A DNA stretch of 64,000 nt. It comes from Dehalococcoidia bacterium (lineage in GTDB: Bacteria > Chloroflexota > Dehalococcoidia > UBA6926). Every line of letters begins with the position of its first letter. Within the stretch, counting starts at the first letter, position 1. This document shows positions 27,480 through 37,498 of the stretch, piece by piece. The translations under genes and the position numbers were made by a program. Below the pieces are notes generated by a model. It made no database searches and was not told the origin of the DNA. It saw only the letters and a list, made by a program, of their open reading frames with translations. The stretch covers positions 2,916-66,915 of the forward strand of contig VXMO01000028.1 of the NCBI GenBank assembly GCA_009841045.1, given 5' to 3'.

Positions 27480-29864
27480 CTAGCCCAAAGCCTCCACAAG
27501 AATCTCAATGTTTCTGCGGAACATGGTCAGGTACGTGTCTGCGCCGCTGCCCGCCGGTCCAAGGGAGCCGGTGAAGAGGGAGTAGAAGCCCGCTCCTGTT
27601 TCGTCGGCAATCGTACGCGCGATCCGTTCAGGGACCGTGTTCTCTCCGAAGACCGCCGGAACCCCCTCGTGCTCGATAATCTCGACGAGCTCAGCAAGCT
27701 GCTCCGCTGATGACTCCGTTTCCGTCGTTCCACTGGGAATCACCGTTCCCACCACTTCAAAGCCGTACAGCAAAGCAAAGTAGCTGTGCGTATCGTGCGA
27801 GGTGACGAGGATGCGGTGGTCGGCAGGGATTGTGGCAACCTGCTGCTCGCTCCACGCGTGGAGCTCTTGCAACTGGGCCACATAGGCCGTGGCGTTAGCG
27901 GTGTAGGTCTCCGCGCCGGCCGGATCCATCATCGCCAGACGAGTGGCGATGTCAATGACCGCGGTCTGGACTCGAATCGGGTCAAACCAGAAGTGAGGAT
28001 CGTGCGTACCGTGGTCATGATCGTGGTGATCATGGTCGTCGTGCTCGTCCTCGTCTTCGTGGTCGTCATCCTCGTCGTGGTCATGCTCATCTTCATGGGC
28101 GTGCTCGTCCTCATGATGGTCATCAACGCCCAATCCGACGAAGGCGATGCTGCGAGGCTGCCCGCCGATGGGCCACGTGCGCTCAATCTCCCCATGTGGA
28201 AGATGGAACTCAATGATCTGGCCGCCAACCCTGTCTGAAAGGTACAGAAACTCGCCAACGACGATGAACGACGGAGAGTTGCTGCCTTCGAATGCCTCTA
28301 CAAGCTCGTAGGTTTCCTCTACTTCGCCGTGCTCCACGTGGATGACGTTCAAGAGCCCATCGTATGTCAGTACGTACAGATGCTCACCATGAGCGTCAAA
28401 AGCCGCGCTGCGCACGGTCTTCTCAGCAGTTGGAGGCAGGACGAGCGACATTTCATCGCCCTCGGCGTCAATCATCCAGAGTCCGCCGTTCAGGCGAGCG
28501 CCGCCTTCCTCACTGTATGAGGCAGAGCCGAAGAAGTACTCGGAATCGTGATGCCCCCACAGAGTGCCAATGCGGGCCGCCGGATTCATGTCGGCCGGGT
28601 TCTCAATGAACGAATGCTCATATTCGCCGAAATGGGCATGAATGAACAACACTCCGCCGGCGCAGCCGAACACCGTGCCATGCGCATTGCTAGCCTCGCC
28701 GTGGAGGGCCGGGCATGCGCGGGACGCCCCGTCAAAGACGACATCGCCGCCCATCGTCCAGACCTCCGCCCCGAGCGGCAAGCTGCTTGTGCCCGAAACA
28801 CTCGGGTAGTCCGGATTGTTGGTCGTCACCAGAACGTTTCCATCCTCCAACACGATGCCTGCGCCGTGCTGCAGACCTGCCTCCAGCCAGGCCGGTTCGT
28901 ACTCGTTGAGCTCTTCTATCAGGTCGTGCTCCTCGAACAGAGCGATTCGACCCGACCCGTCATGGAAGATTGCCGTCCAGCCTGCATGAGGGTTGAAGTG
29001 GATAGGCCGGTTGTCAGTTGTGCCTACGGTCAGCCGCGAAACGGAATCCGTGACCAGGTCGAAGTGATCGCCGTGTTCCTCAAGGTAGATGCCGCCATCA
29101 AAGATGTGGACGCGGTCGTCATTGGCGGCATCATCTCCCGGTCCGCGGGCGAGAGCAAAGGCAAAGCGTCCGCTTGGGCTCGTGTAGAGCGTTGCCGCGG
29201 GCGCCGCCACCTGCAGGCTCCCCTCATCCAACTGTTCCGTTGTGAGGTCCAGGACGGACACGGTGGCGGAGTCTCCGTCCGCGATGAGAAGTCGGCCCGT
29301 GAGGTCCTCATGGCCCATCTCGTCCATGTGATCGTCATGGTCGTCATGCTCATCGTGATGGGCGCCGGTTTCCGCGAATTCAATCGGATTCACAGCTTCA
29401 GCGAGAGCAATGATCTTTGACTCGTCCGTGCTTGCGTTGTGGATGAGCTCCTCAAGCCACTGGCCCTCCAGCTGAAGACCAACGGTAAATACCAGGTCAG
29501 CATCCACAATGTTCGCAACATCTCGCGCGCCGGGCTGGTACGTATGCGGGTCGCCGCCCGGCGGGATGAGGCTCGTCACCTCTACGCGATCTCCGCCGAT
29601 ATTCTTGATCCAGTCGCCGACGATGTTGCTCGTCGCGATCACCTGCAGTGGCTCGTGATCCATCTGGGTATCCCCGGATGATCCGGTCTGCGATGTGTCG
29701 GTCTGCCCCGTGGTGGACGATGTATCAGCGGGTTGTGGTGTCGCTGTAGGATCGTCCTCGCTTTCGCACGCTGCAACGGCCAGGACCATTGCAAGCGCGA
29801 GAGTTAGTAACAAGAGGCCAAATGCTCTCGCTGGAATCAGCCTCCGTACTCCAAATGCCTTCAT
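27480..29864 (-). CDS. ZnuA/AztC-type metal-ABC-transporter substrate-binding lipoprotein with a large (about 390 aa) beta-propeller-like insertion in the His-rich loop
   Basis: Lipobox LAVAAC. N-lobe of cluster-A-I SBPs (IATSNIVGDWIKNIGG...DPHTYQP). His-rich stretch HHDEHDDHDDHMDEMGHED, then the insert with repeated xDGxxL/YVLTYDG-like strand motifs. Second stretch DDHHEDEHAHEDEHDHDEDDDHEDEDEHDDHDHHDHDHGTHDPHFWFDP, then the ZnuA C-lobe (ILVTSHDTHSYFALLYG...). Confidence 0.7.
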   Translation of the reverse strand: MKAFGVRRLIPARAFGLLLLTLALAMVLAVAACESEDDPTATPQPADTSSTTGQTDTSQTGSSGDTQMDHEPLQVIATSNIVGDWIKNIGGDRVEVTSLIPPGGDPHTYQPGARDVANIVDADLVFTVGLQLEGQWLEELIHNASTDESKIIALAEAVNPIEFAETGAHHDEHDDHDDHMDEMGHEDLTGRLLIADGDSATVSVLDLTTEQLDEGSLQVAAPAATLYTSPSGRFAFALARGPGDDAANDDRVHIFDGGIYLEEHGDHFDLVTDSVSRLTVGTTDNRPIHFNPHAGWTAIFHDGSGRIALFEEHDLIEELNEYEPAWLEAGLQHGAGIVLEDGNVLVTTNNPDYPSVSGTSSLPLGAEVWTMGGDVVFDGASRACPALHGEASNAHGTVFGCAGGVLFIHAHFGEYEHSFIENPADMNPAARIGTLWGHHDSEYFFGSASYSEEGGARLNGGLWMIDAEGDEMSLVLPPTAEKTVRSAAFDAHGEHLYVLTYDGLLNVIHVEHGEVEETYELVEAFEGSNSPSFIVVGEFLYLSDRVGGQIIEFHLPHGEIERTWPIGGQPRSIAFVGLGVDDHHEDEHAHEDEHDHDEDDDHEDEDEHDDHDHHDHDHGTHDPHFWFDPIRVQTAVIDIATRLAMMDPAGAETYTANATAYVAQLQELHAWSEQQVATIPADHRILVTSHDTHSYFALLYGFEVVGTVIPSGTTETESSAEQLAELVEIIEHEGVPAVFGENTVPERIARTIADETGAGFYSLFTGSLGPAGSGADTYLTMFRRNIEILVEALG

Positions 29865-30046
29865 TCTGTCTCCCTACCCTCTGTGGGTTGATGCTTGGCG
29901 GCCTCGACTAACCGCATTTGTCTGCCTTCTTTTTGAGATACAGTGTCAGTTTTCTCTTCGATCCACTCCGTCGATGTACGATAGCATCTATCCCGTTTCC
30001 TACTGCGCTTACACGGGGTTAGTCGCCTTTGCAGACAGGTTCATAT

Positions 30047-30059
30047 GATACTGAGTATC
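30047..30059. promoter_or_regulatory. perfect palindrome GATACTGAGTATC in a divergent promoter region (candidate operator)
   Basis: AT-richer 380-bp region between the divergent ZnuA-like and Cache-lipoprotein genes. The palindrome is seen directly, its function is inferred. Confidence 0.2.
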
Positions 30060-30247
30060 ACATTTCTCCAAGCGCCCACGTCACTTCGGAAGCGGAACAA
30101 ACAACGATACCCAAACCCCGAAAGGGGTGTCAATAGTATTGAGATTTGCAGGTGATCACCAGCCTCACAATGAGTCACCTTCGTACAATGGATTGATCGT
30201 GCCAGAGGCGCTCATTCAGCCGACCCGGGACTTGGCGTACAATATCA

Positions 30248-31207
30248 GTGATAATGACATTTGTTGCTCCATTCAATCTATTGAAGTGGCTCATGCAACG
30301 CATTCTTCTCATAGCTCTGCTGATTGCCGTGGTCGTGACCGCCACACTGCTGGCGGCCTGCTCTGACGAATCGTCTGAACCAACGACGGAGGCGGAACCG
30401 GGAGAGGTCGGCGCTCAAGACGGCACAATCACCGTGTCAAAGGACCAACCTCTGGCCTACGCGCAGGCATTGGTCCAGCAAGCGATTGACCGCTACGGCA
30501 CGGATGGACGCCAGGCAACCATCGACTTCTATAACTCCGAGGAAAGCCTCGATGGTGATTGGCATGTGTTCATCCTCGATGAAGCGGGATACATCGCGTC
30601 CATGGCAGCGTTCCCTGCTTGGGTTGGCGTCCATGATTCCGAGTTCAAGGGATACAAGGACTACCCCGCCGGGCAGATGGTGATCGACGGCGCACACGAG
30701 GAAGGCATCCAAATCGATTACCTCGCCAGGGATTTCTTTGGCAACATCGACCTCAATCATCTTTGGGTCGTCAAACACGATGGACTGGTATTTGCCTCGT
30801 CGTCGTGGTCCGGCGAGGAAATATCGAAGTCGGACCAGCCCGGGTACACGCAAGAACAGGTCAGGCTGGCGATAGGGCTCTATGAAGCGTCCGGCCTGCA
30901 GGCGGCACTCGACTACTACAACAGCCCGGACAGCGTTGACGAGCAATGGTACACGTTCATCGTGGACACGGAGACTGGACGCACAATCGGACACTTCAAT
31001 CCTGACCTGCGTGATCGTGACCCAAGTTTACGCGTCGACTCCACCGGATACTTCTACGGGGATGATCTTCTGGGAGCAACGGAGTCCGGCGACTGGATCC
31101 AGTACGTGATCACGAACCCTGACAATGGTGAAGAACAGCTCAAACACACGTGGGCCGTCCTGCACGATGGCTACATCTTCGCCTCCGGCTGGTACGAAGA
31201 CCCGTAG
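30248..31207 (+). CDS. lipoprotein with two tandem sCache_2-like extracytoplasmic sensor domains (no output domain)
   Basis: Signal and lipobox LLAAC (alternative ATG at 30293). Two repeats of about 140 aa with the pattern YxFxxDxxG...G...DxxGY..G..gxWxxYxxxNPxxG...KHxWxxxHDGxIFxSGWYED. Confidence 0.6.
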   Translation: MIMTFVAPFNLLKWLMQRILLIALLIAVVVTATLLAACSDESSEPTTEAEPGEVGAQDGTITVSKDQPLAYAQALVQQAIDRYGTDGRQATIDFYNSEESLDGDWHVFILDEAGYIASMAAFPAWVGVHDSEFKGYKDYPAGQMVIDGAHEEGIQIDYLARDFFGNIDLNHLWVVKHDGLVFASSSWSGEEISKSDQPGYTQEQVRLAIGLYEASGLQAALDYYNSPDSVDEQWYTFIVDTETGRTIGHFNPDLRDRDPSLRVDSTGYFYGDDLLGATESGDWIQYVITNPDNGEEQLKHTWAVLHDGYIFASGWYEDP

Positions 31208-31267
31208 TTGCTAGAATAGTCGTAGATGTACTCCACTTCCCCATCTTCTCCACAAAGGACATGACCG

Positions 31268-32569
31268 ATGACCAATTCTATTGCCGTCTATAACGTCATC
31301 TCCAGGCGGATAGGGCAGGCTGCGCTGCCAATGCTTCTATTCCTCACTTTGGGGATGCTGGCATTGTCGTTCGGCTGCACTGAGCAACAGGCAGACGATC
31401 TGGCGGCTATTGATGCCCCGAGGAGTCAGCCCACCGCGTACACGCAGGCATACGTACAGGCCGCTATCGATTACTACGAGGCCAACGGACTTGATGAAAC
31501 TGTCAACCATTACAACGATCCCGCCAGCGTTGACGGTCAGTGGTACATCTTCATTGCCGATGAGACCGGGCGCCTCATCGTGCACGGCGCGAACCAGGAC
31601 CTGGTTGGCGTGCCCCTGGACGATGTCATTGACGGGAATGGCTACCCATCGGGCCGAATTGTGGCCAATGATGCTGACGAAGGCGGCGCATGGTCGGAGT
31701 ACGTGTTCTTCAATCCCGCCACCGGCCGTTCACAGGCTAAGCATTCGTGGCTGGTCATCCACGATGGCCTTATCTTCGGCTCCGGCTGGTACGAGGACGG
31801 CCCGCGCAAGTCTGAACAGCCGGCTTACACGCAGGAATATGTGCGCCAGGCATTGAACCTGTATGACTCTTTAGGCCGTGAAGCCCTTGTCGACTATTAC
31901 AACAATCCCGTCAGCATTGATGGCCAGTGGTACATGTTCATCACCGATGAAAGCGGACGCCTCATCGTTAATGGCGCGAACCAGGACCTGATTGGCATGC
32001 CCCTTGTTGACGTCGTCGGGGCGAACGGCTACCCGTCTGGTCGGATCGTGGCGGATGACGCGGATGAAGACGGCGAATGGTCCGTGAACACCTTTTTCAA
32101 CCCTGCCACAGGCCGCTCCCAGATCAAGCACCCGTGGCTGGTCAGACATGATGGTCTGATCTTCGCCTCCGGCTGGTACGAGGACGGCCCGCGCAAATCG
32201 GAACAACCGGCGTACACGCAGGCGCTCGTTCAGCAGGCGCTGAATCTCTATGATTCCTCCGGCCTGGACGTGGCGATTGAGTACTATAGCGATCCTGTCA
32301 GCGTGGACGGCCCATGGTATGTCGGCATCATTGATGCTGAGACGGGACGGACAATCGCCCACTTCAACCCCGATGTGCGAGATCGCGACCCTGCTCTACG
32401 CGTCGATTCGACGGGGTACTTCTACGGAGATGACCTGCTTCGTGCAACGGAGGAGGGTCATTGGTTCGAAGTCGTATTCCACAACCCGGCTACCGGCCAA
32501 GAGGAGCGTAAACATTCGTGGGCCGTCCTGCACGACGGCTACATCTTTTCGTCCGGCTGGTACGAATAA
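31268..32569 (+). CDS. lipoprotein with three tandem sCache_2-like domains, paralogue of the preceding gene
   Basis: Signal and lipobox LSFGC. Three repeats each starting PAYTQ...V.QA...Y and ending SGWYEDGPRKSEQ. Confidence 0.6.
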   Translation: MTNSIAVYNVISRRIGQAALPMLLFLTLGMLALSFGCTEQQADDLAAIDAPRSQPTAYTQAYVQAAIDYYEANGLDETVNHYNDPASVDGQWYIFIADETGRLIVHGANQDLVGVPLDDVIDGNGYPSGRIVANDADEGGAWSEYVFFNPATGRSQAKHSWLVIHDGLIFGSGWYEDGPRKSEQPAYTQEYVRQALNLYDSLGREALVDYYNNPVSIDGQWYMFITDESGRLIVNGANQDLIGMPLVDVVGANGYPSGRIVADDADEDGEWSVNTFFNPATGRSQIKHPWLVRHDGLIFASGWYEDGPRKSEQPAYTQALVQQALNLYDSSGLDVAIEYYSDPVSVDGPWYVGIIDAETGRTIAHFNPDVRDRDPALRVDSTGYFYGDDLLRATEEGHWFEVVFHNPATGQEERKHSWAVLHDGYIFSSGWYE

Positions 32570-32612: not shown

Positions 32613-32870
32613 CTAGCTCAGGCCGAGGGCAGCGCTGAGTTCCTTGTCGGACGGCTCAGCCAGAACACGCCCGCCGGGCAGGACGATAGTCGGAACAACC
32701 TGCATCCCGTTGTTGAGGTGCCGCACGGTATCTGCCGCCTCGGGCACTTCCTCGATGTTGATCCAGGTGTACTTAACGTTGTGCTTGTCCAGCAGTCGCT
32801 TGGAGCGCGCGCAGTCCGGGCACCACGTCGTCGCGTACATCAGGATTTCCGCTTCGGTTTGCGTCATGTC
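32613..32870 (-). CDS. glutaredoxin-like protein (NrdH/mycoredoxin type, CPDC active site)
   Basis: MTQTEAEILMYATTWCPDCARSKRLL...VPTIVLPGG (CxxC plus cis-Pro TVP). Start at ATG 32870. The ORF-track N-extension is unlikely. Confidence 0.7.
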   Translation of the reverse strand, partial: DMTQTEAEILMYATTWCPDCARSKRLLDKHNVKYTWINIEEVPEAADTVRHLNNGMQVVPTIVLPGGRVLAEPSDKELSAALGLS

Positions 32871-32932
32871 TATTCTCCTTGTTGGCTTGGGCTGGTGCTT
32901 TCTCCATATCCAGTGTAGTAGGAGAGGCAACT

Positions 32933-33880
32933 CTAGATATCCGCCTCCGCCCCTCTGCCCTGTTCAATTGCGGCGCGGTACACGTGCGTCGCAAGCGCAA
33001 CATCCCACAGCCCGATGCCGTGCGACTCAAAGAGTGTGATGTCACTGTCTGAACGACGGGCGGACTCACCACCCGCAACGATATCCCCAAGCTCCGGGAG
33101 TCGCGCCAGATCAACGATGCCGCGCTCGATGGGTTCCTGCAGGTCGCCGCTCTCAATCGCGGTCTGTTCGCGGTCGTCGACCACGATTACATCCGCCCTT
33201 CTAACGGCCTCCATATCAATCTCGCGCCGCAACAGTGAGTTCGACCCAATCGCGTTCACATGCGCCCCCGCCTTGAGCCACGCGCCCTCCAACACCGGCG
33301 ATGACGCGTTCGTCGCGGTAATCACGATGTCCGCCTCCCCAACAATCTGTGCGTTATCGACCGGCTCTACCGGAACCCCTACCCGCTCACTCATTCGCTC
33401 CGCAAACGTCTTGCGTCTGTCCTCATCTCGACCGTAGGCGAGCACCCGGGACACATTTCGCACTGCGCACACCGCAGAAACCTGTGTCCGCGCCTGCATG
33501 CCGGTTCCGATGATCCCAACGGTCTGCTCTGCGTCCTCCCGCGCCATGTACTTCGTCGCGACGCCGCTGGCCGCGCCCGTGCGCAGCGTGCCAAGCCAGT
33601 TCGCCTGGATAATCGCCGCGAGCTTGCGCTCGGTCATGTCGTAGAGAAGAACGTGGACGGCCCCGGCGGCATAGAACGCCGTCTTGAATCCCAGGAATCC
33701 CGTCTCGGCGTCTCCGCCCGGCATGATGGCAAGTGCCCCGTGCGGAGCGCGGAGACGGCGGCGCGGGTCGTTCACCGCCCTGCCCGCCCCCTGGCTCTTA
33801 TGAGCGCTCTCGAGCGCCGCGATAGCGTCGTCCATTGTTGAGAGATCACGAACATCCTGTTCAGTGAGTAGTAAGGGCAC
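32933..33880 (-). CDS. ornithine cyclodeaminase/mu-crystallin family protein
   Basis: 315 aa. Rossmann GIIGTGMQAR and other OCD-family blocks. Confidence 0.75.
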   Translation of the reverse strand: MPLLLTEQDVRDLSTMDDAIAALESAHKSQGAGRAVNDPRRRLRAPHGALAIMPGGDAETGFLGFKTAFYAAGAVHVLLYDMTERKLAAIIQANWLGTLRTGAASGVATKYMAREDAEQTVGIIGTGMQARTQVSAVCAVRNVSRVLAYGRDEDRRKTFAERMSERVGVPVEPVDNAQIVGEADIVITATNASSPVLEGAWLKAGAHVNAIGSNSLLRREIDMEAVRRADVIVVDDREQTAIESGDLQEPIERGIVDLARLPELGDIVAGGESARRSDSDITLFESHGIGLWDVALATHVYRAAIEQGRGAEADI

Positions 33881-34046
33881 GCAACACCTCCACGTTGACT
33901 TTCATGTATGGTACGCGGACTGTCCGCCAAATTGACACGCCCGAAGCGCGAACGGACAATAAGACGACGCGCCGCCGGATGAACGGACAGCGCAGTAATT
34001 GCCGCCTGACGGCGTGCGGCGTTTAAGAAAGCGGGGGAGGCAGACA

Positions 34047-35441
34047 ATGGCCAAGGCGCGGACGATTGGGGAATTGAGGGAGAGCGAATACCGCGTTCTT
34101 AGCGTCAAGGACGAGCTTCGCAAGAACCTCGTGGCGCGGATTCGGACGGGTGAGGAACTCTTCCCCGGGATCGTCGGCTATGAGGAAACGGTTCTGCCGC
34201 AGATCGAGAACGCCATCCTCTCCGGGCAGGACATCATCCTGCTTGGTGAGCGGGGTCAGGCCAAGACGCGTATCATTCGCGCGCTCGTCGGCCTCCTTGA
34301 TTCCGAAGTGCCGGTCATTGAGGGCTGTGAGATCAATTGCAACCCCTATGCCCCCACATGCCGTTCCTGCCTTATCCGCTTCGAGGAGGAGGGTGACAAG
34401 ACCCCTATCGCCTGGCAGCCCCGCGAACGCCGTTACGGCGAGAAGCTCGCCACACCGGACATCACCATTGCGGACCTCATCGGCGAGGTCGACCCCATCA
34501 AGGTGGCCGAAGGCCGCTATCTATCCGACGAGTTCACCATCCACTACGGCCTCATCCCCCGGACCAACCGCGGCATCTTCTGTATCAACGAGCTGCCCGA
34601 CTTATCGGAGCGGATACAGGTCGGCATGTTCAACATCATGGAAGAGCGCGACGTGCAGATTAAGGGCTACAAGGTTCAGCTCCCACTGGACCTGTTCCTG
34701 ATTGCGAGCGCGAACCCGGAGGACTACACCAACCGCGGGCGGATCATCACCCCGCTCAAGGACCGCTTCGGCGCGCAGATTCGCACCCACTATCCCAAGA
34801 CGCTCGAACATGAGATTGAAATCATGGACGCGGAGCGTGAGCCGATCGCGGACGTGGGCGTGAACCTGACCATGCCTTATTTCATGAAGGAAACCGTCGC
34901 CGAGTTCACGAATCTTGCACGCAAGAGCGGCGACGTGAACCAGCGCTCCGGTGTCAGCGTCCGCGTGTCCATCGGCAACTATGAGACCATCTCCTCCAAC
35001 GCCGTGCGCCGAGCCCTCCGCCTTAAGGAGAAAGAGGCCGTGCCTCGTGTTAGTGACATGGCCTTCTTCCTCACATCGACGGCCGGCAAGGTTGAACTGG
35101 AAAGCGTGGAGGAGGGCCGCGAGCCGCGCATCATCGAGGATCTGACCAAGCGCGCGGTTCTTAACACGTTCAATAATCACTTTTCCACCAATGAATTCGA
35201 CGCCATCATCCGCCGCTTTGACGAAGGTCTGTCCATTGATACCGGCGACATGATTCCGTCGAAGGAGTTAGCCGGCTGGCTCAAGGACCTGCCGGAGCTG
35301 AAGGACGCGGCCAATCGACTAGACGTCAAGCGCTCGGTAGCGGCGCAGGCGTCGGTCGTGGAGTTCGTGCTGGATGGGCTGCACCTGAGCAGGAAGATCA
35401 ATAAAGACCGACACGAAGGTGGCTACCGCTATCGAGGCTGA
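34047..35441 (+). CDS. ChlI/BchI-family AAA+ ATPase (Mg-chelatase-like)
   Basis: ATG at 34047 follows GGGGGAGG. Degenerate Walker A GERGQAKT, Cys-containing insert, NRGIFCINE (Walker B) and NPEDYTNRGRIITPLKDRFG (sensor-2 block), all in BchI order. Confidence 0.7.
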   Translation: MAKARTIGELRESEYRVLSVKDELRKNLVARIRTGEELFPGIVGYEETVLPQIENAILSGQDIILLGERGQAKTRIIRALVGLLDSEVPVIEGCEINCNPYAPTCRSCLIRFEEEGDKTPIAWQPRERRYGEKLATPDITIADLIGEVDPIKVAEGRYLSDEFTIHYGLIPRTNRGIFCINELPDLSERIQVGMFNIMEERDVQIKGYKVQLPLDLFLIASANPEDYTNRGRIITPLKDRFGAQIRTHYPKTLEHEIEIMDAEREPIADVGVNLTMPYFMKETVAEFTNLARKSGDVNQRSGVSVRVSIGNYETISSNAVRRALRLKEKEAVPRVSDMAFFLTSTAGKVELESVEEGREPRIIEDLTKRAVLNTFNNHFSTNEFDAIIRRFDEGLSIDTGDMIPSKELAGWLKDLPELKDAANRLDVKRSVAAQASVVEFVLDGLHLSRKINKDRHEGGYRYRG

Positions 35442-35449
35442 GTAAGCTC

Positions 35450-37498
35450 GTGGCGCCCATCTACCGGTTTTCTCGTTGGGACGGTACGCAGCTTCTCGAC
35501 GAAGCAGCCGATGAAGCCCTCCTGGACGAACTCATGGACGATGTCCTCGCCCGAGGGGACATCGACTCATCCCTCCGCTCAATCATGCGGCGGGGCACAC
35601 ACCCGCGTGACAGCGATGTCGATGTGCAGGGCATGGACGATATGCTCCGCCAGCTGCGCCAACAGCGGCAGGACATCCTCCGCAAACACGACCTCGGCAG
35701 CCTGCTGGATGATCTCCGAAACAAGCTGAAAGAGGTTATCGAAACGGAACGTCAGGGTATTCAAGAGCGTGTGTCCGCGGCAGAGTCCGCGATTGAAAAT
35801 CCCCCACCCGGCATAGACCCGGGAACCGCTGCCCGCCTCGCCGAACGCGTCAAGGACATGGCGCAACGGAATGAGGCAACCCTGAATGCCCTGCCAGACA
35901 ACCTGGGCGACGCCGTCCGGGAACTCAATGACTACGAGTTCATGGACCCGGAGGCGCAGCGGCTTTTTGAAGAGTTGAAGAACCTCATACAACAGCAGTT
36001 CGTCGATCGGCAGTTCTCTGACCTGCGTGAGAATCTTGAAAACATCACGCAGCAAGACCTAGATGCCGCCGCGCAGATGATGCGGGAACTCAACGGCATG
36101 CTGCAGAGTCACATCCGCGGCGACGAGGAAACGGGCTTCGATGAGTTCATGGAGCGGTGGGGCGGCGCGTTCGGTGAGTCGCCGCCGCAGGACATCGAGC
36201 AGCTCATCGACCAACTCCAGGATCAGGCCGCGCAGGCGCAGTCCCTCATGAGCAGCCTCTCACCGAGCCAGCGTCAACAGCTCCAGGACATGATCTCCGG
36301 CATGTTGGACAACCCTCAACTCGCTCAACAGATGGCCGAGCTGCAAACGAACCTTGACATGCTTCGCGTTGGCGGCGAATTTGGGCGCCAATTCAGGTTC
36401 AGTGGCGATGAGCCAGTCGCCCTGCAGGACGCCCTCAACCTGATGGACGAACTGAACCGCATGGACAACCTTGAGGACGATCTCAAGAAGGCTCTTTATG
36501 GCGGCGGCAGCATTGACCAGATCGATACCGAGCGCGTCAGTGAGATCCTCGGTGAAGACGCGGAAGCATCGCTGGAAAAGCTGCGTCAACTAGCCGAGCG
36601 TGCCGTCGAGGAGGGGCTTCTGCGAACGTCGGATGACGGGTCGCACGAGTTTACCGCGCGAGGCATCCGCAAGATTGGCGAGAAGGCGCTGGCCGAGATA
36701 TTCGGCTACCTGCGGCGAACATACACAGGCCGCCACACCGCCCGAATGCAGGGACGGGGCGGCGAGCCGACAGAGGCCACCCGGCCCTACCAATACGGCG
36801 ACGAGTTCAACGTCGATCTGCGCCGCACCGTGCAGTCGGCGGTCATGCGCAGCGGCAATGGCGTGCCGGTACGGCTTGAGGCGGACGATTTCCAGGTGCG
36901 CGAGACGGAGGAATTGGCGCAGGCGTCCACGGTGCTGCTGATCGACCTCAGCCTGTCCATGGCGATGCGTGGCAACTTTGTGATGGCAAAGAAGGTCGCG
37001 TTGGCGCTGGACACCCTGATCCGGACGCAGTTCAGCCGCGACAGCCTCTACGTGGTGGGATTCTCAACCTACGCGCGGGAGATGAAACCTGAGACGCTCG
37101 CCTACCTTAGCTGGGACGAGTTCGAGCCGTACACCAACATCCAGCACGGCCTCGTCGTCGCCCAAAAACTGCTGGCGCGGCATGCGGGCGGCAACAAGCA
37201 GATCATCATGGTATCGGACGGAGAGCCGACGGCCCACATCGAGAACGGCCGCATCTTCCTCCAATACCCGCCAAGCCCGCGCACAATCCAGGAGACCCTG
37301 AAAGAGGTGTCACGCACCACGCGGGCGGGCATCTCCATCAACACGTTCATGCTGGAGCAGAACCCATACCTGATGGAATTCGTGGACCAGATCACGAGAA
37401 TCAACAAGGGCCGCGTCTTTTACACGTCGCCGGAGCGGCTTGGCGAATACATCGTCGTGGACTACTACACCAACCGCCGCCGCTCCATCATCTCCTGA
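35450..37498 (+). CDS. VWA-domain protein (ChlD/CobT-like architecture: helical N-terminal region, acidic linker, C-terminal von Willebrand A)
   Basis: C-terminal MIDAS motif VLLIDLSLSM...SDGEPT. Long Gln/Glu/Asp-rich coiled-coil-like N-terminal part. The start is 9 nt after the ATPase stop. Confidence 0.7.
   Translation: MAPIYRFSRWDGTQLLDEAADEALLDELMDDVLARGDIDSSLRSIMRRGTHPRDSDVDVQGMDDMLRQLRQQRQDILRKHDLGSLLDDLRNKLKEVIETERQGIQERVSAAESAIENPPPGIDPGTAARLAERVKDMAQRNEATLNALPDNLGDAVRELNDYEFMDPEAQRLFEELKNLIQQQFVDRQFSDLRENLENITQQDLDAAAQMMRELNGMLQSHIRGDEETGFDEFMERWGGAFGESPPQDIEQLIDQLQDQAAQAQSLMSSLSPSQRQQLQDMISGMLDNPQLAQQMAELQTNLDMLRVGGEFGRQFRFSGDEPVALQDALNLMDELNRMDNLEDDLKKALYGGGSIDQIDTERVSEILGEDAEASLEKLRQLAERAVEEGLLRTSDDGSHEFTARGIRKIGEKALAEIFGYLRRTYTGRHTARMQGRGGEPTEATRPYQYGDEFNVDLRRTVQSAVMRSGNGVPVRLEADDFQVRETEELAQASTVLLIDLSLSMAMRGNFVMAKKVALALDTLIRTQFSRDSLYVVGFSTYAREMKPETLAYLSWDEFEPYTNIQHGLVVAQKLLARHAGGNKQIIMVSDGEPTAHIENGRIFLQYPPSPRTIQETLKEVSRTTRAGISINTFMLEQNPYLMEFVDQITRINKGRVFYTSPERLGEYIVVDYYTNRRRSIIS

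Follow-up and report, generated by a model that had tools for sequence, protein, structure and literature searches.

No family of extracellular sensor modules in prokaryotes is larger than that of the Cache domains, which are treated almost wholly as signalling inputs. What such domains might do in proteins that have nothing to signal with is the question raised by two adjacent genes, here called A and B, at positions 30,248 to 32,569 of a 64,000-nucleotide stretch of contig VXMO01000028.1 (the window) from a Dehalococcoidia bacterium. Each encodes a predicted lipoprotein built of tandem Cache units, two in A and three in B, with no transmembrane or output domain behind them. We consider it an even call whether A and B are non-signalling, membrane-tethered, multivalent proteins for the binding or capture of carboxylates. 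What is new here is a well-known sensor domain set in a new architecture, most likely with a binding role that does not involve signalling.

Two predicted lipoproteins made of sCache_2 units

Gene A (30248..31207, plus strand) and gene B (31268..32569, plus strand) appear in the list of open reading frames (ORFs) as proteins of 319 residues, counted from a GTG at 30248, and 433 residues. A first-pass annotation, made from the DNA letters alone, had described them as adjacent paralogues composed only of two and three Cache units, and the ORFs are as described, with the two proteins matching each other in a blastp comparison at an E-value of 2e-93. Unit boundaries were set with a hidden Markov model (HMM) built from the units and give a unit length of 126-129 residues, in place of the roughly 140 given in that annotation. 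In A, a divergent unit, A1 (residues 65-190; 30440..30817), which matches B1 with an E-value of 1e-25 and 40% identity, is followed by A2 (residues 194-319; 30827..31204), a terminal-type unit with the stretch RDRDPSLRVDSTGYFYGDDLL. In B, two internal-type units, B1 (residues 52-179; 31421..31804) and B2 (residues 181-308; 31808..32191), precede a terminal-type unit, B3 (residues 310-433; 32195..32566). All five lie on the plus strand, and in both proteins a short acidic linker precedes the tandem modules. Identity between units ranges from 32 to 67%: B1 and B2 are 67% identical, as are A2 and B3, with about 50% between these two groups, and A1 is the most divergent at 32-37% identity to the remaining units. 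At the DNA level B1 and B2 form a 387-nucleotide tandem repeat with 80% matches (TRF), and no copy of the unit was found in the window outside A and B.

The units of A and B are sCache_2 domains by profile, by predicted fold and by structure match, which bears out the earlier recognition of the repeats as Cache-type. The Pfam sCache_2 profile (PF17200; gathering threshold 25 bits) matches B above threshold over three stretches (74.3 bits, E 1.3e-20). A scores 20.7 bits, under this cut-off, and its units are counted as sCache_2 homologues because of the matches to B given above, both of the whole protein and of A1 with B1. NCBIfam profiles gave nothing useful for either protein, and a phmmer search with B against PDB sequences returned only a spurious de novo protein; a unit profile was needed to reach the real relatives. 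Built from 49 family units, this profile matched TlpB, PscD and Adeh_3718 in the PDB at E-values of 2e-5 to 2e-4. The AlphaFold2 (AF2) model of unit B2, made with the family unit alignment as input, reached a pLDDT of 96.3 and has helices at residues 4-22 and 24-31 followed by strands. In a Foldseek comparison of this model with the PDB, 4exo/2qhk, TlpB, 4k08 and 5g4y came out on top with TM scores of 0.65-0.75, and other Cache and PAS domains trailed far behind.

A fixed mutual arrangement of the three domains of B is predicted by the AF2 model of the mature protein (pLDDT 92.1, pTM 0.85), in which each unit has its own helix-helix-sheet order. Foldseek found no solved structure with this multi-domain arrangement; it returned single-domain matches only (TMq at most 0.25), and the weak matches of the whole model include alpha2delta chains. 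B also scores 53.3 bits against the Pfam dCache_2 profile (PF08269), over the threshold of that family. The nested double-Cache topology of dCache_2 was nevertheless rejected for B, since in the model a helix pair opens each unit after the last strand of the previous one and the boundaries are clean; B is a plain tandem array, and its dCache_2 match arises from the repeated sCache_2 units. The dCache_2 family itself originated by duplication of sCache_2 (PMC4822843).

A and B carry one hydrophobic segment each, at the N-terminus, and elsewhere hydropathy never exceeds 1.13. In A this segment belongs to a signal peptide encoded at 30248..30361 (plus strand), which ends in the lipobox LLAAC, with the codon of Cys38 at 30359-30361. 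In B the signal peptide is encoded at 31268..31378 (plus strand) and ends in the lipobox-like LSFGC, with the codon of Cys37 at 31376-31378. The first-pass claim of a lipobox in each protein stands for A, where LAAC, as read from the sequence, fits the canonical pattern [LVI][ASTVI][GAS]C after a hydrophobic signal segment. It stands less firmly for B, where SFGC departs from this pattern at positions -3 and -2 and where orthologues have LSGC, LSAC or AVGC. Signal peptide and lipobox Cys, with no other hydrophobic segment, predict an extracytoplasmic location for both proteins. Neither mature protein contains a cysteine or a His-rich motif, Trp and Tyr are abundant in both, and both are strongly acidic, with 52 Asp and Glu residues against 14 Lys and Arg in A (30362-31204) and 63 against 23 in B (31379-32566).

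The start of A is ambiguous between GTG 30248, ATG 30254 and ATG 30293, the last being the public gene call (304 residues). In an alignment of the 16 orthologous spacers upstream of A, GTG-AAx-ATG is kept at the start region, with GGAG upstream of it in relatives, and the mature protein is identical under all three starts. A and B probably form one operon, because the gap between them is only 60 nucleotides and an AAGGA ribosome-binding site precedes the ATG of B. A terminator scan returned sites only within the B coding region, at chance level.

Pfam and hydropathy analysis found no transmembrane helix, HAMP or output domain after the Cache units of A and B; the first-pass statement that neither a transmembrane output nor an enzymatic domain is present was thus upheld. 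Both proteins end where their last unit ends and the gene 3' of B, a glutaredoxin-like gene (32613-32930, minus strand), is convergent, which argues against an output domain and likewise against a split receptor. The latter idea, that A and B are fragments of one larger receptor broken by a frameshift or an assembly error, had been raised in the first-pass annotation, and its only hint is that the two genes are adjacent and paralogous. There is no frameshift, and each gene has its own signal peptide. The pair of a two-unit and a three-unit gene recurs in six independent genomes: it is found in L001-L003, L006 and L010, and in L004 the two-unit gene is followed by three three-unit genes, other relatives having a single gene. 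Orthologues are of equal length (431-434 residues in more than ten genomes), and an identical B protein occurs on another contig. We regard a split receptor as practically out of the question.

A family of Cache arrays with a conserved pocket

A and B belong to a large, undescribed family that is annotated only as 'cache domain-containing protein', the NCBI name of a close relative 77% identical to B. An exhaustive profile search over 1.84 billion representatives (clusters at 50% identity) gave 3756 matches at an E-value cut-off of 1e-3, 1434 at 1e-10 and 360 at 1e-30, and the family holds at least 360 such clusters. A word-indexed search, in which 8000 candidates were scored, brought up no fewer than 1434 relatives with E<=0.001. 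A search of the literature on tandem, stand-alone and lipoprotein Cache domains, and on Cache domains in SAR202 and sponge Chloroflexi, found no published description of tandem Cache-only lipoproteins. The first-pass annotation had suggested examining the phyletic distribution: 80 related loci come nearly all from metagenome-assembled genomes (MAGs) of Dehalococcoidia/Chloroflexota, many of them from sponge metagenomes, and the closest loci belong to unclassified Dehalococcoidia MAGs. Single members were found in MAGs labelled Acidimicrobiia, Ca. (Candidatus) Spongiisociaceae and Limisphaerales (L064, L067, L078), which suggests either transfer between sponge symbionts or binning errors. The ORF of L078, of about 1387 residues with three units, resembles in length and unit count the Laminin_G/Ig fusion protein P0154.

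Family proteins carry from 2 to 16 units, with about 16 in P0131 (2099 residues) and 11-12 in P0155 (1561 residues). Nearly all of the 120 closest relatives have a signal peptide and lipobox Cys at the N-terminus; after any stalk, all consist of units only, and the chain ends with the last unit. Precomputed Pfam lists record no signalling domain for these 120 and no families other than Cache, apart from the collagen-like or low-complexity stalks of some. In many relatives (P0006, P0008, P0014 and P0019, for example) a collagen-like Gly-X-Y stalk (PF01391) lies between the lipobox Cys and the first unit, and others have repeated acidic spacers of the 'VxxIVRSE' type or coiled-coil-like stalks. 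Units at the C-terminal end form a subtype of their own, marked by the conserved stretch RGRDPSLRVDxTGYFYGDDLL, which was found in 90 of the 119 terminal units and in only 4 of the 374 that are not terminal. Neighbouring units are more than 90% identical in 41 of 203 pairs; unit number therefore shifts by recent tandem duplication.

Domains were also sought in 18 longer family members. In these, the units are fused to Laminin_G_3 and Ig domains, to PPC, 5_nucleotid_C and LRR, to a subtilase (Peptidase_S8) with PPC and RCC1, and to cadherin-like, vanadium-chloroperoxidase-like (VCPO) and DUF285 domains; two of them end in an SBP_bac_3 solute-binding domain. A kinase, MCP, GGDEF/EAL or HAMP domain was found in none of the 18. 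Because the longer members are fused to extracellular modules and never to signalling domains, the Cache unit appears to act as a surface binding module, which fits the binding rather than transducing role envisaged in the first-pass annotation.

The pocket was compared with that of the chemoreceptor PscD, in which the carboxylate of the ligand is gripped by Tyr90, His103, Tyr143 and Lys156, and Trp92 and Trp145 sandwich the ligand (PMC5062169). HMM alignments to PscD and Adeh_3718 place the four clamp residues at unit positions 42, 55, 94 and 107 and the two sandwich Trp residues at positions 44 and 96. The complete Tyr-His-Tyr-Lys (YHYK) tetrad is present in 432 of 479 family units (90%); taken singly, Lys107 is found in 476, Tyr42 in 473 and Tyr94 in 467 units. 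Position 44 is Phe in 437 of the 479, and position 96 is Phe, Tyr, Leu or Ile. Of the five units of A and B, A2 and B1 retain all four residues, B2 (YNNK) and B3 (YHVK) have part of them, and the pocket of A1 (HMYN) is degenerate. This outcome of the pocket check proposed by the first-pass annotation, the conservation of a PscD-type tetrad, is the reason to infer a carboxylate-bearing ligand: judged by these residues, the modules most likely bind carboxylate-bearing small molecules, with a specificity that most likely differs between internal-type and terminal-type units. An identity with PacP-type sCache_PC3 domains, in which phosphate is bound by an Arg at the His+5 position (Arg105 of PacP; PMC12395807), was considered and rejected, as family units have Asp, Ala or Glu in place of this Arg, and the five window units have Asp or Ala.

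The same arrays might instead serve in adhesion or host interaction, binding carboxylated polymers such as uronic or sialic acids or acidic glycans, whether these belong to the sponge matrix or to other cells, and so anchoring the symbiont. The sponge origin of many related loci (APA, RHO, COS and SB bins, Ca. Spongiisociaceae), the collagen-like stalks of many members and the LRR, cadherin-like, Ig and Laminin_G fusion partners all speak for such a role, and multivalency fits avidity binding. The conserved pocket residues, however, are of the kind that lines a small and enclosed site for a ligand (compare PMC5062169), and A and B themselves carry neither a stalk nor an adhesion module. We consider adhesion quite unlikely as the function of the arrays.

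The divergent ZnuA-like gene and other neighbours

Upstream of A, on the minus strand, lies a ZnuA-like gene (27480-29864) for an AztC/MntC-type metal-binding protein (PF01297) of 794 residues. It is separated from A by a divergent spacer of 383 bp (29865..30247) with a GC content of 0.49-0.51 against about 0.60 in the flanks, in accord with the AT-richer region of some 380 bp noted at first pass. From this arrangement the first-pass annotation had derived as plausible a co-regulation of the Cache lipoproteins with the ZnuA-like gene, and a role for them in binding a small ligand or metal; on the reading weighed here they would bind or buffer a metal or a metal chelate. Several points are consistent with this idea: 16 loci, some with an identity as low as about 56%, retain the divergent ZnuA-like/Cache pair despite insertions on both sides, the spacer contains conserved non-coding blocks, mature A and B are strongly acidic, and the ligand could be a metal chelator of the carboxylate type.

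The conserved elements were located in the alignment of the 16 spacers. An operator-like palindrome, TGATAC-N3-GTATCA (30046..30060), has fixed arms and a variable centre, and a weaker, degenerate copy, TGAGATACAGTGTCA (29934..29948), lies 70 nucleotides upstream of the ZnuA-like start and aligns with TGATATTCAGTATCA of L005 and L007. The only good promoter-like site, TTGACA and TATCGT separated by 18 nucleotides (30104..30133, minus strand), faces the ZnuA-like gene, and its TTGACA falls within the conserved block GGTGTCAA, given as GGTGTCAAnnnTATTGAGATT at about 30126-30147 in the alignment of the spacers. The element CGTACAAT at 30182-30189 is conserved as well. Seen from this promoter-like site on the minus strand, both palindromes lie downstream, within what is presumed to be the leader of the ZnuA-like gene. 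The exact palindrome stands 182-185 nucleotides upstream of every ZnuA-like paralogue; L004, L008 and L013 each have two tandem ZnuA-like paralogues with one palindrome apiece, Cache neighbour or not (L004 3144-3158, L008 4990-5004, L013 5106-5120), and the pattern was found nowhere else in the 81 loci. Because it tracks the ZnuA-like paralogues, the palindrome is ascribed to these genes, and nothing in the analysis points to an action on the Cache genes. It is likely the operator of some metal regulator, placed in a leader of about 230 nucleotides downstream of the conserved TTGACA. A Fur/Zur-like box in TGATAATGACATT (30249-30261) was rejected, since the orthologous alignment identifies these positions as the start region of A, conserved as GTG-AAx-ATG-AC and with GGAG before it in relatives, and an Rfam search of the spacer gave no credible match.

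Co-regulation is thus not borne out: the palindrome in the ZnuA-like leader also occurs upstream of ZnuA-like paralogues without a Cache neighbour (L004, L008, L013), and the adjacency is confined to one clade, where it forms part of a larger syntenic block in the 16 loci. In a crude gene map, L043 appears to keep the Cache gene without the ZnuA-like gene, and the family is mostly found in unrelated gene contexts. Nor was the proposed metal-binding role supported, since the conserved pocket residues are of the carboxylate-binding sCache_2 type and not those of a metal site, and the mature proteins have no Cys and no His-rich motif. A function in metal binding under joint control with the ZnuA-like gene is, in our judgement, very unlikely.

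The ZnuA-like protein is itself unusual in composition. Its PF01297 region is in two stretches, at about residues 62-176 and 600-793, between which a complete AztD-like zinc-chaperone beta-propeller is inserted (NF038015, E 1e-41, residues 195-576), flanked by long runs rich in His, Asp and Glu. AztD and AztC are known as separate proteins with a direct hand-over of zinc (PMC6689063), and a quick literature search found no fused AztC-AztD form. The fusion gene is tandemly duplicated in the relatives L004, L008, L011 and L013. No permease or ATPase gene adjoins it, and rpsO and pnp follow. In some relatives two genes lie between rpsO and the ZnuA-like gene (clusters 12 and 13), which read, from their sequences, as a GH3-like gene and as one resembling a fusion of haem-oxygenase-like and enolase-superfamily domains.

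Gene neighbourhoods were compared by calling ORFs in all loci and clustering them. The order seen in the window, namely pnp, rpsO, the ZnuA-like gene, the divergent Cache gene or genes, ornithine cyclodeaminase and, beyond it, the genes of a MoxR-like ATPase and of a vWA protein, is common to about 16 loci of the closest clade, and the majority of the family lies in unrelated contexts. In the window, Pfam results cover the glutaredoxin-like gene and the ornithine cyclodeaminase/mu-crystallin family gene at 32933-33880 on the minus strand; the two large ORFs beyond (33999-35441 and 35450-37498, both plus strand) were assigned by eye, the first to a MoxR-like AAA ATPase and the second to a vWA-type protein. 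A small conserved lipoprotein-like gene (cluster 14, 179 residues) directly follows the Cache gene in relatives and is absent from the window.

In other clades the neighbours are PhyH with a ceramidase-like gene, a luciferase-like monooxygenase with Ion_trans, CitMHS with a kinase and a regulator, or ABC genes. In one clade (L017, L019, L029, L052) the gene of a 271-residue Ion_trans channel of the voltage-gated type adjoins the Cache gene; in another (L016, L020, L022, L023) it is followed by the gene of a CitMHS/TrkA_C anion/carboxylate transporter, and genes of a HisKA_3 kinase and a LuxR-type regulator lie upstream; in L009 ABC transporter genes adjoin it. Polytopic membrane proteins are not enriched beside family genes, making up 6% of immediate neighbours and then 6%, 6% and 9% at successive positions (counted per distinct cluster), so that we treat the CitMHS, Ion_trans and ABC adjacencies as clade-specific.

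These adjacencies bear on a further explanation, in which the ligand-loaded Cache lipoprotein would be a co-receptor or auxiliary subunit that docks on a separate sensor kinase, channel or transporter and modulates this partner. Such arrangements have precedents: solute-binding proteins dock on some chemoreceptors and kinases, and the lipid-anchored, multi-Cache alpha2delta proteins dock on animal calcium channels. The Ion_trans neighbour recalls the latter pairing, and the CitMHS loci with their kinase and regulator, the ABC genes, the alpha2delta chains among the weak Foldseek matches and the SBP_bac_3 domain that ends some relatives point the same way. Each association with a membrane partner is, however, confined to a single clade of related genomes, the general lack of enrichment stands against it, and in the window itself the Cache genes adjoin those of a ZnuA-like binding protein, of a glutaredoxin and of an ornithine cyclodeaminase, none of them such a partner. 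A co-receptor role seems to us unlikely.

A proposed role in capture at the cell surface

From the points demonstrated here, that is, the architecture, the fold, the lack of an output domain, the conservation of the pocket, the family distribution and the fusion partners, we infer for A and B a carboxylate ligand and a role in capture. The proteins would be exported by Sec, lipid-modified at the lipobox Cys and placed on the outer face of the membrane of the Dehalococcoidia cell. Each sCache_2 module would offer its own small-molecule pocket, and binding would not be transduced in the usual Cache manner, because no transmembrane helix or output domain follows. A and B may in this way retain organic acids, or polymers bearing carboxylates, on the cell surface and make them available to systems for uptake or processing whose genes lie elsewhere, and would be functionally akin to solute-binding proteins or to the binding modules of surface enzymes.

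Several points weigh against this proposal, to which we give even odds. B departs from the canonical lipobox, and for both proteins lipid modification is a prediction from the N-terminus. The residue equivalences with PscD come from sequence alignment and not from superposed coordinates, three of the five window units lack part of the clamp, and the two sandwich Trp residues of PscD are replaced here by Phe, Ile or Gly, so that the pocket differs. The strong acidity of the mature proteins would also suit low-affinity cation binding. No conserved transporter or other partner was found beside family genes across the loci, and no permease or ATPase genes of an uptake system adjoin A and B in the window; delivery to an uptake system thus finds no support in the genomic context.

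A bolder form of the capture proposal is that a sensor domain has been turned into a lipid-anchored, multivalent capture array, a Cache-fold counterpart of solute-binding proteins that would constitute an undescribed functional class; we advance this tentatively, as somewhat unlikely. Marine and sponge-associated Dehalococcoidia would use such arrays to keep dissolved organic matter rich in carboxylates, or acids that come from the host, at the cell surface, with the copy number of 2-16 units tuning avidity and the specialised terminal unit having a separate role. In a variant, the arrays would be bacterial counterparts of alpha2delta, that is, auxiliary subunits of channels or transporters.

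The closest known relatives are the sCache_2 domains of chemoreceptors for C2/C3 carboxylates (PscD, 5G4Y/5G4Z; Adeh_3718, 4K08; McpP; and the Vibrio parahaemolyticus structures 2QHK/4EXO), with which the units of A and B have in common the Pfam family and the fold. The PscD-type sensors and the units share the N-terminal helix pair, the five-stranded sheet and the Tyr-His-Tyr-Lys clamp, the last with the 90% of family units noted above. Unlike these receptors, the A/B family has no flanking transmembrane helix, HAMP or MCP module, and its units stand in tandem on a predicted lipid anchor and are of 126 residues against about 150. Within the pocket, too, the family departs from the PscD/McpP/Adeh_3718 subgroup, as the seven contact residues are not all identical and the Trp sandwich has been replaced.

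In monoderm bacteria, the solute-binding lipoproteins that serve ABC, TRAP and TTT importers are lipid-anchored binders of small molecules, as A and B are predicted to be, and like them have no catalytic or signalling domain; some relatives of A and B are even fused to SBP_bac_3. They differ in that the PAS-like Cache fold of A and B is not two-lobed, each chain has several pockets, and no transporter gene is conserved beside the family. Eukaryotic alpha2delta and CACHD1 are extracellular and membrane-tethered, as A and B are predicted to be, likewise have several Cache modules and no cytoplasmic output, and bind small carboxylate-bearing ligands (amino acids, gabapentinoids). They are channel subunits with dCache_1 modules and a VWA domain, whereas A and B have sCache_2 modules only, no VWA domain and a weak structural match.

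Stand-alone Cache domains are atypical, more than 90% of Cache domains being fused to signalling modules according to a preprint (PMC12889525). The same source describes the stand-alone haem-binding sCache_heme proteins (Tll0287-like), which like A and B are extracytoplasmic and have no output domain. These are single domains with covalent c-type haem (CXXCH) and a proposed redox role (PMC12889525), whereas the mature parts of A and B are free of Cys, keep the small-ligand pocket and have their units in tandem.

Output-free Cache arrays of up to 16 units with intact pockets, also found fused to surface enzymes and adhesion modules, would show Cache as a plain binding module, a sensor module apparently reused as a surface binding or capture device. 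For annotation, 'cache domain-containing protein' should not be equated with 'sensor' in this family. Being small, and with a prediction of good folding, the units are amenable to standard ligand screens. As the family is centred in uncultured marine and sponge Dehalococcoidia, its function bears on how these bacteria acquire organic acids and recalcitrant organic matter.

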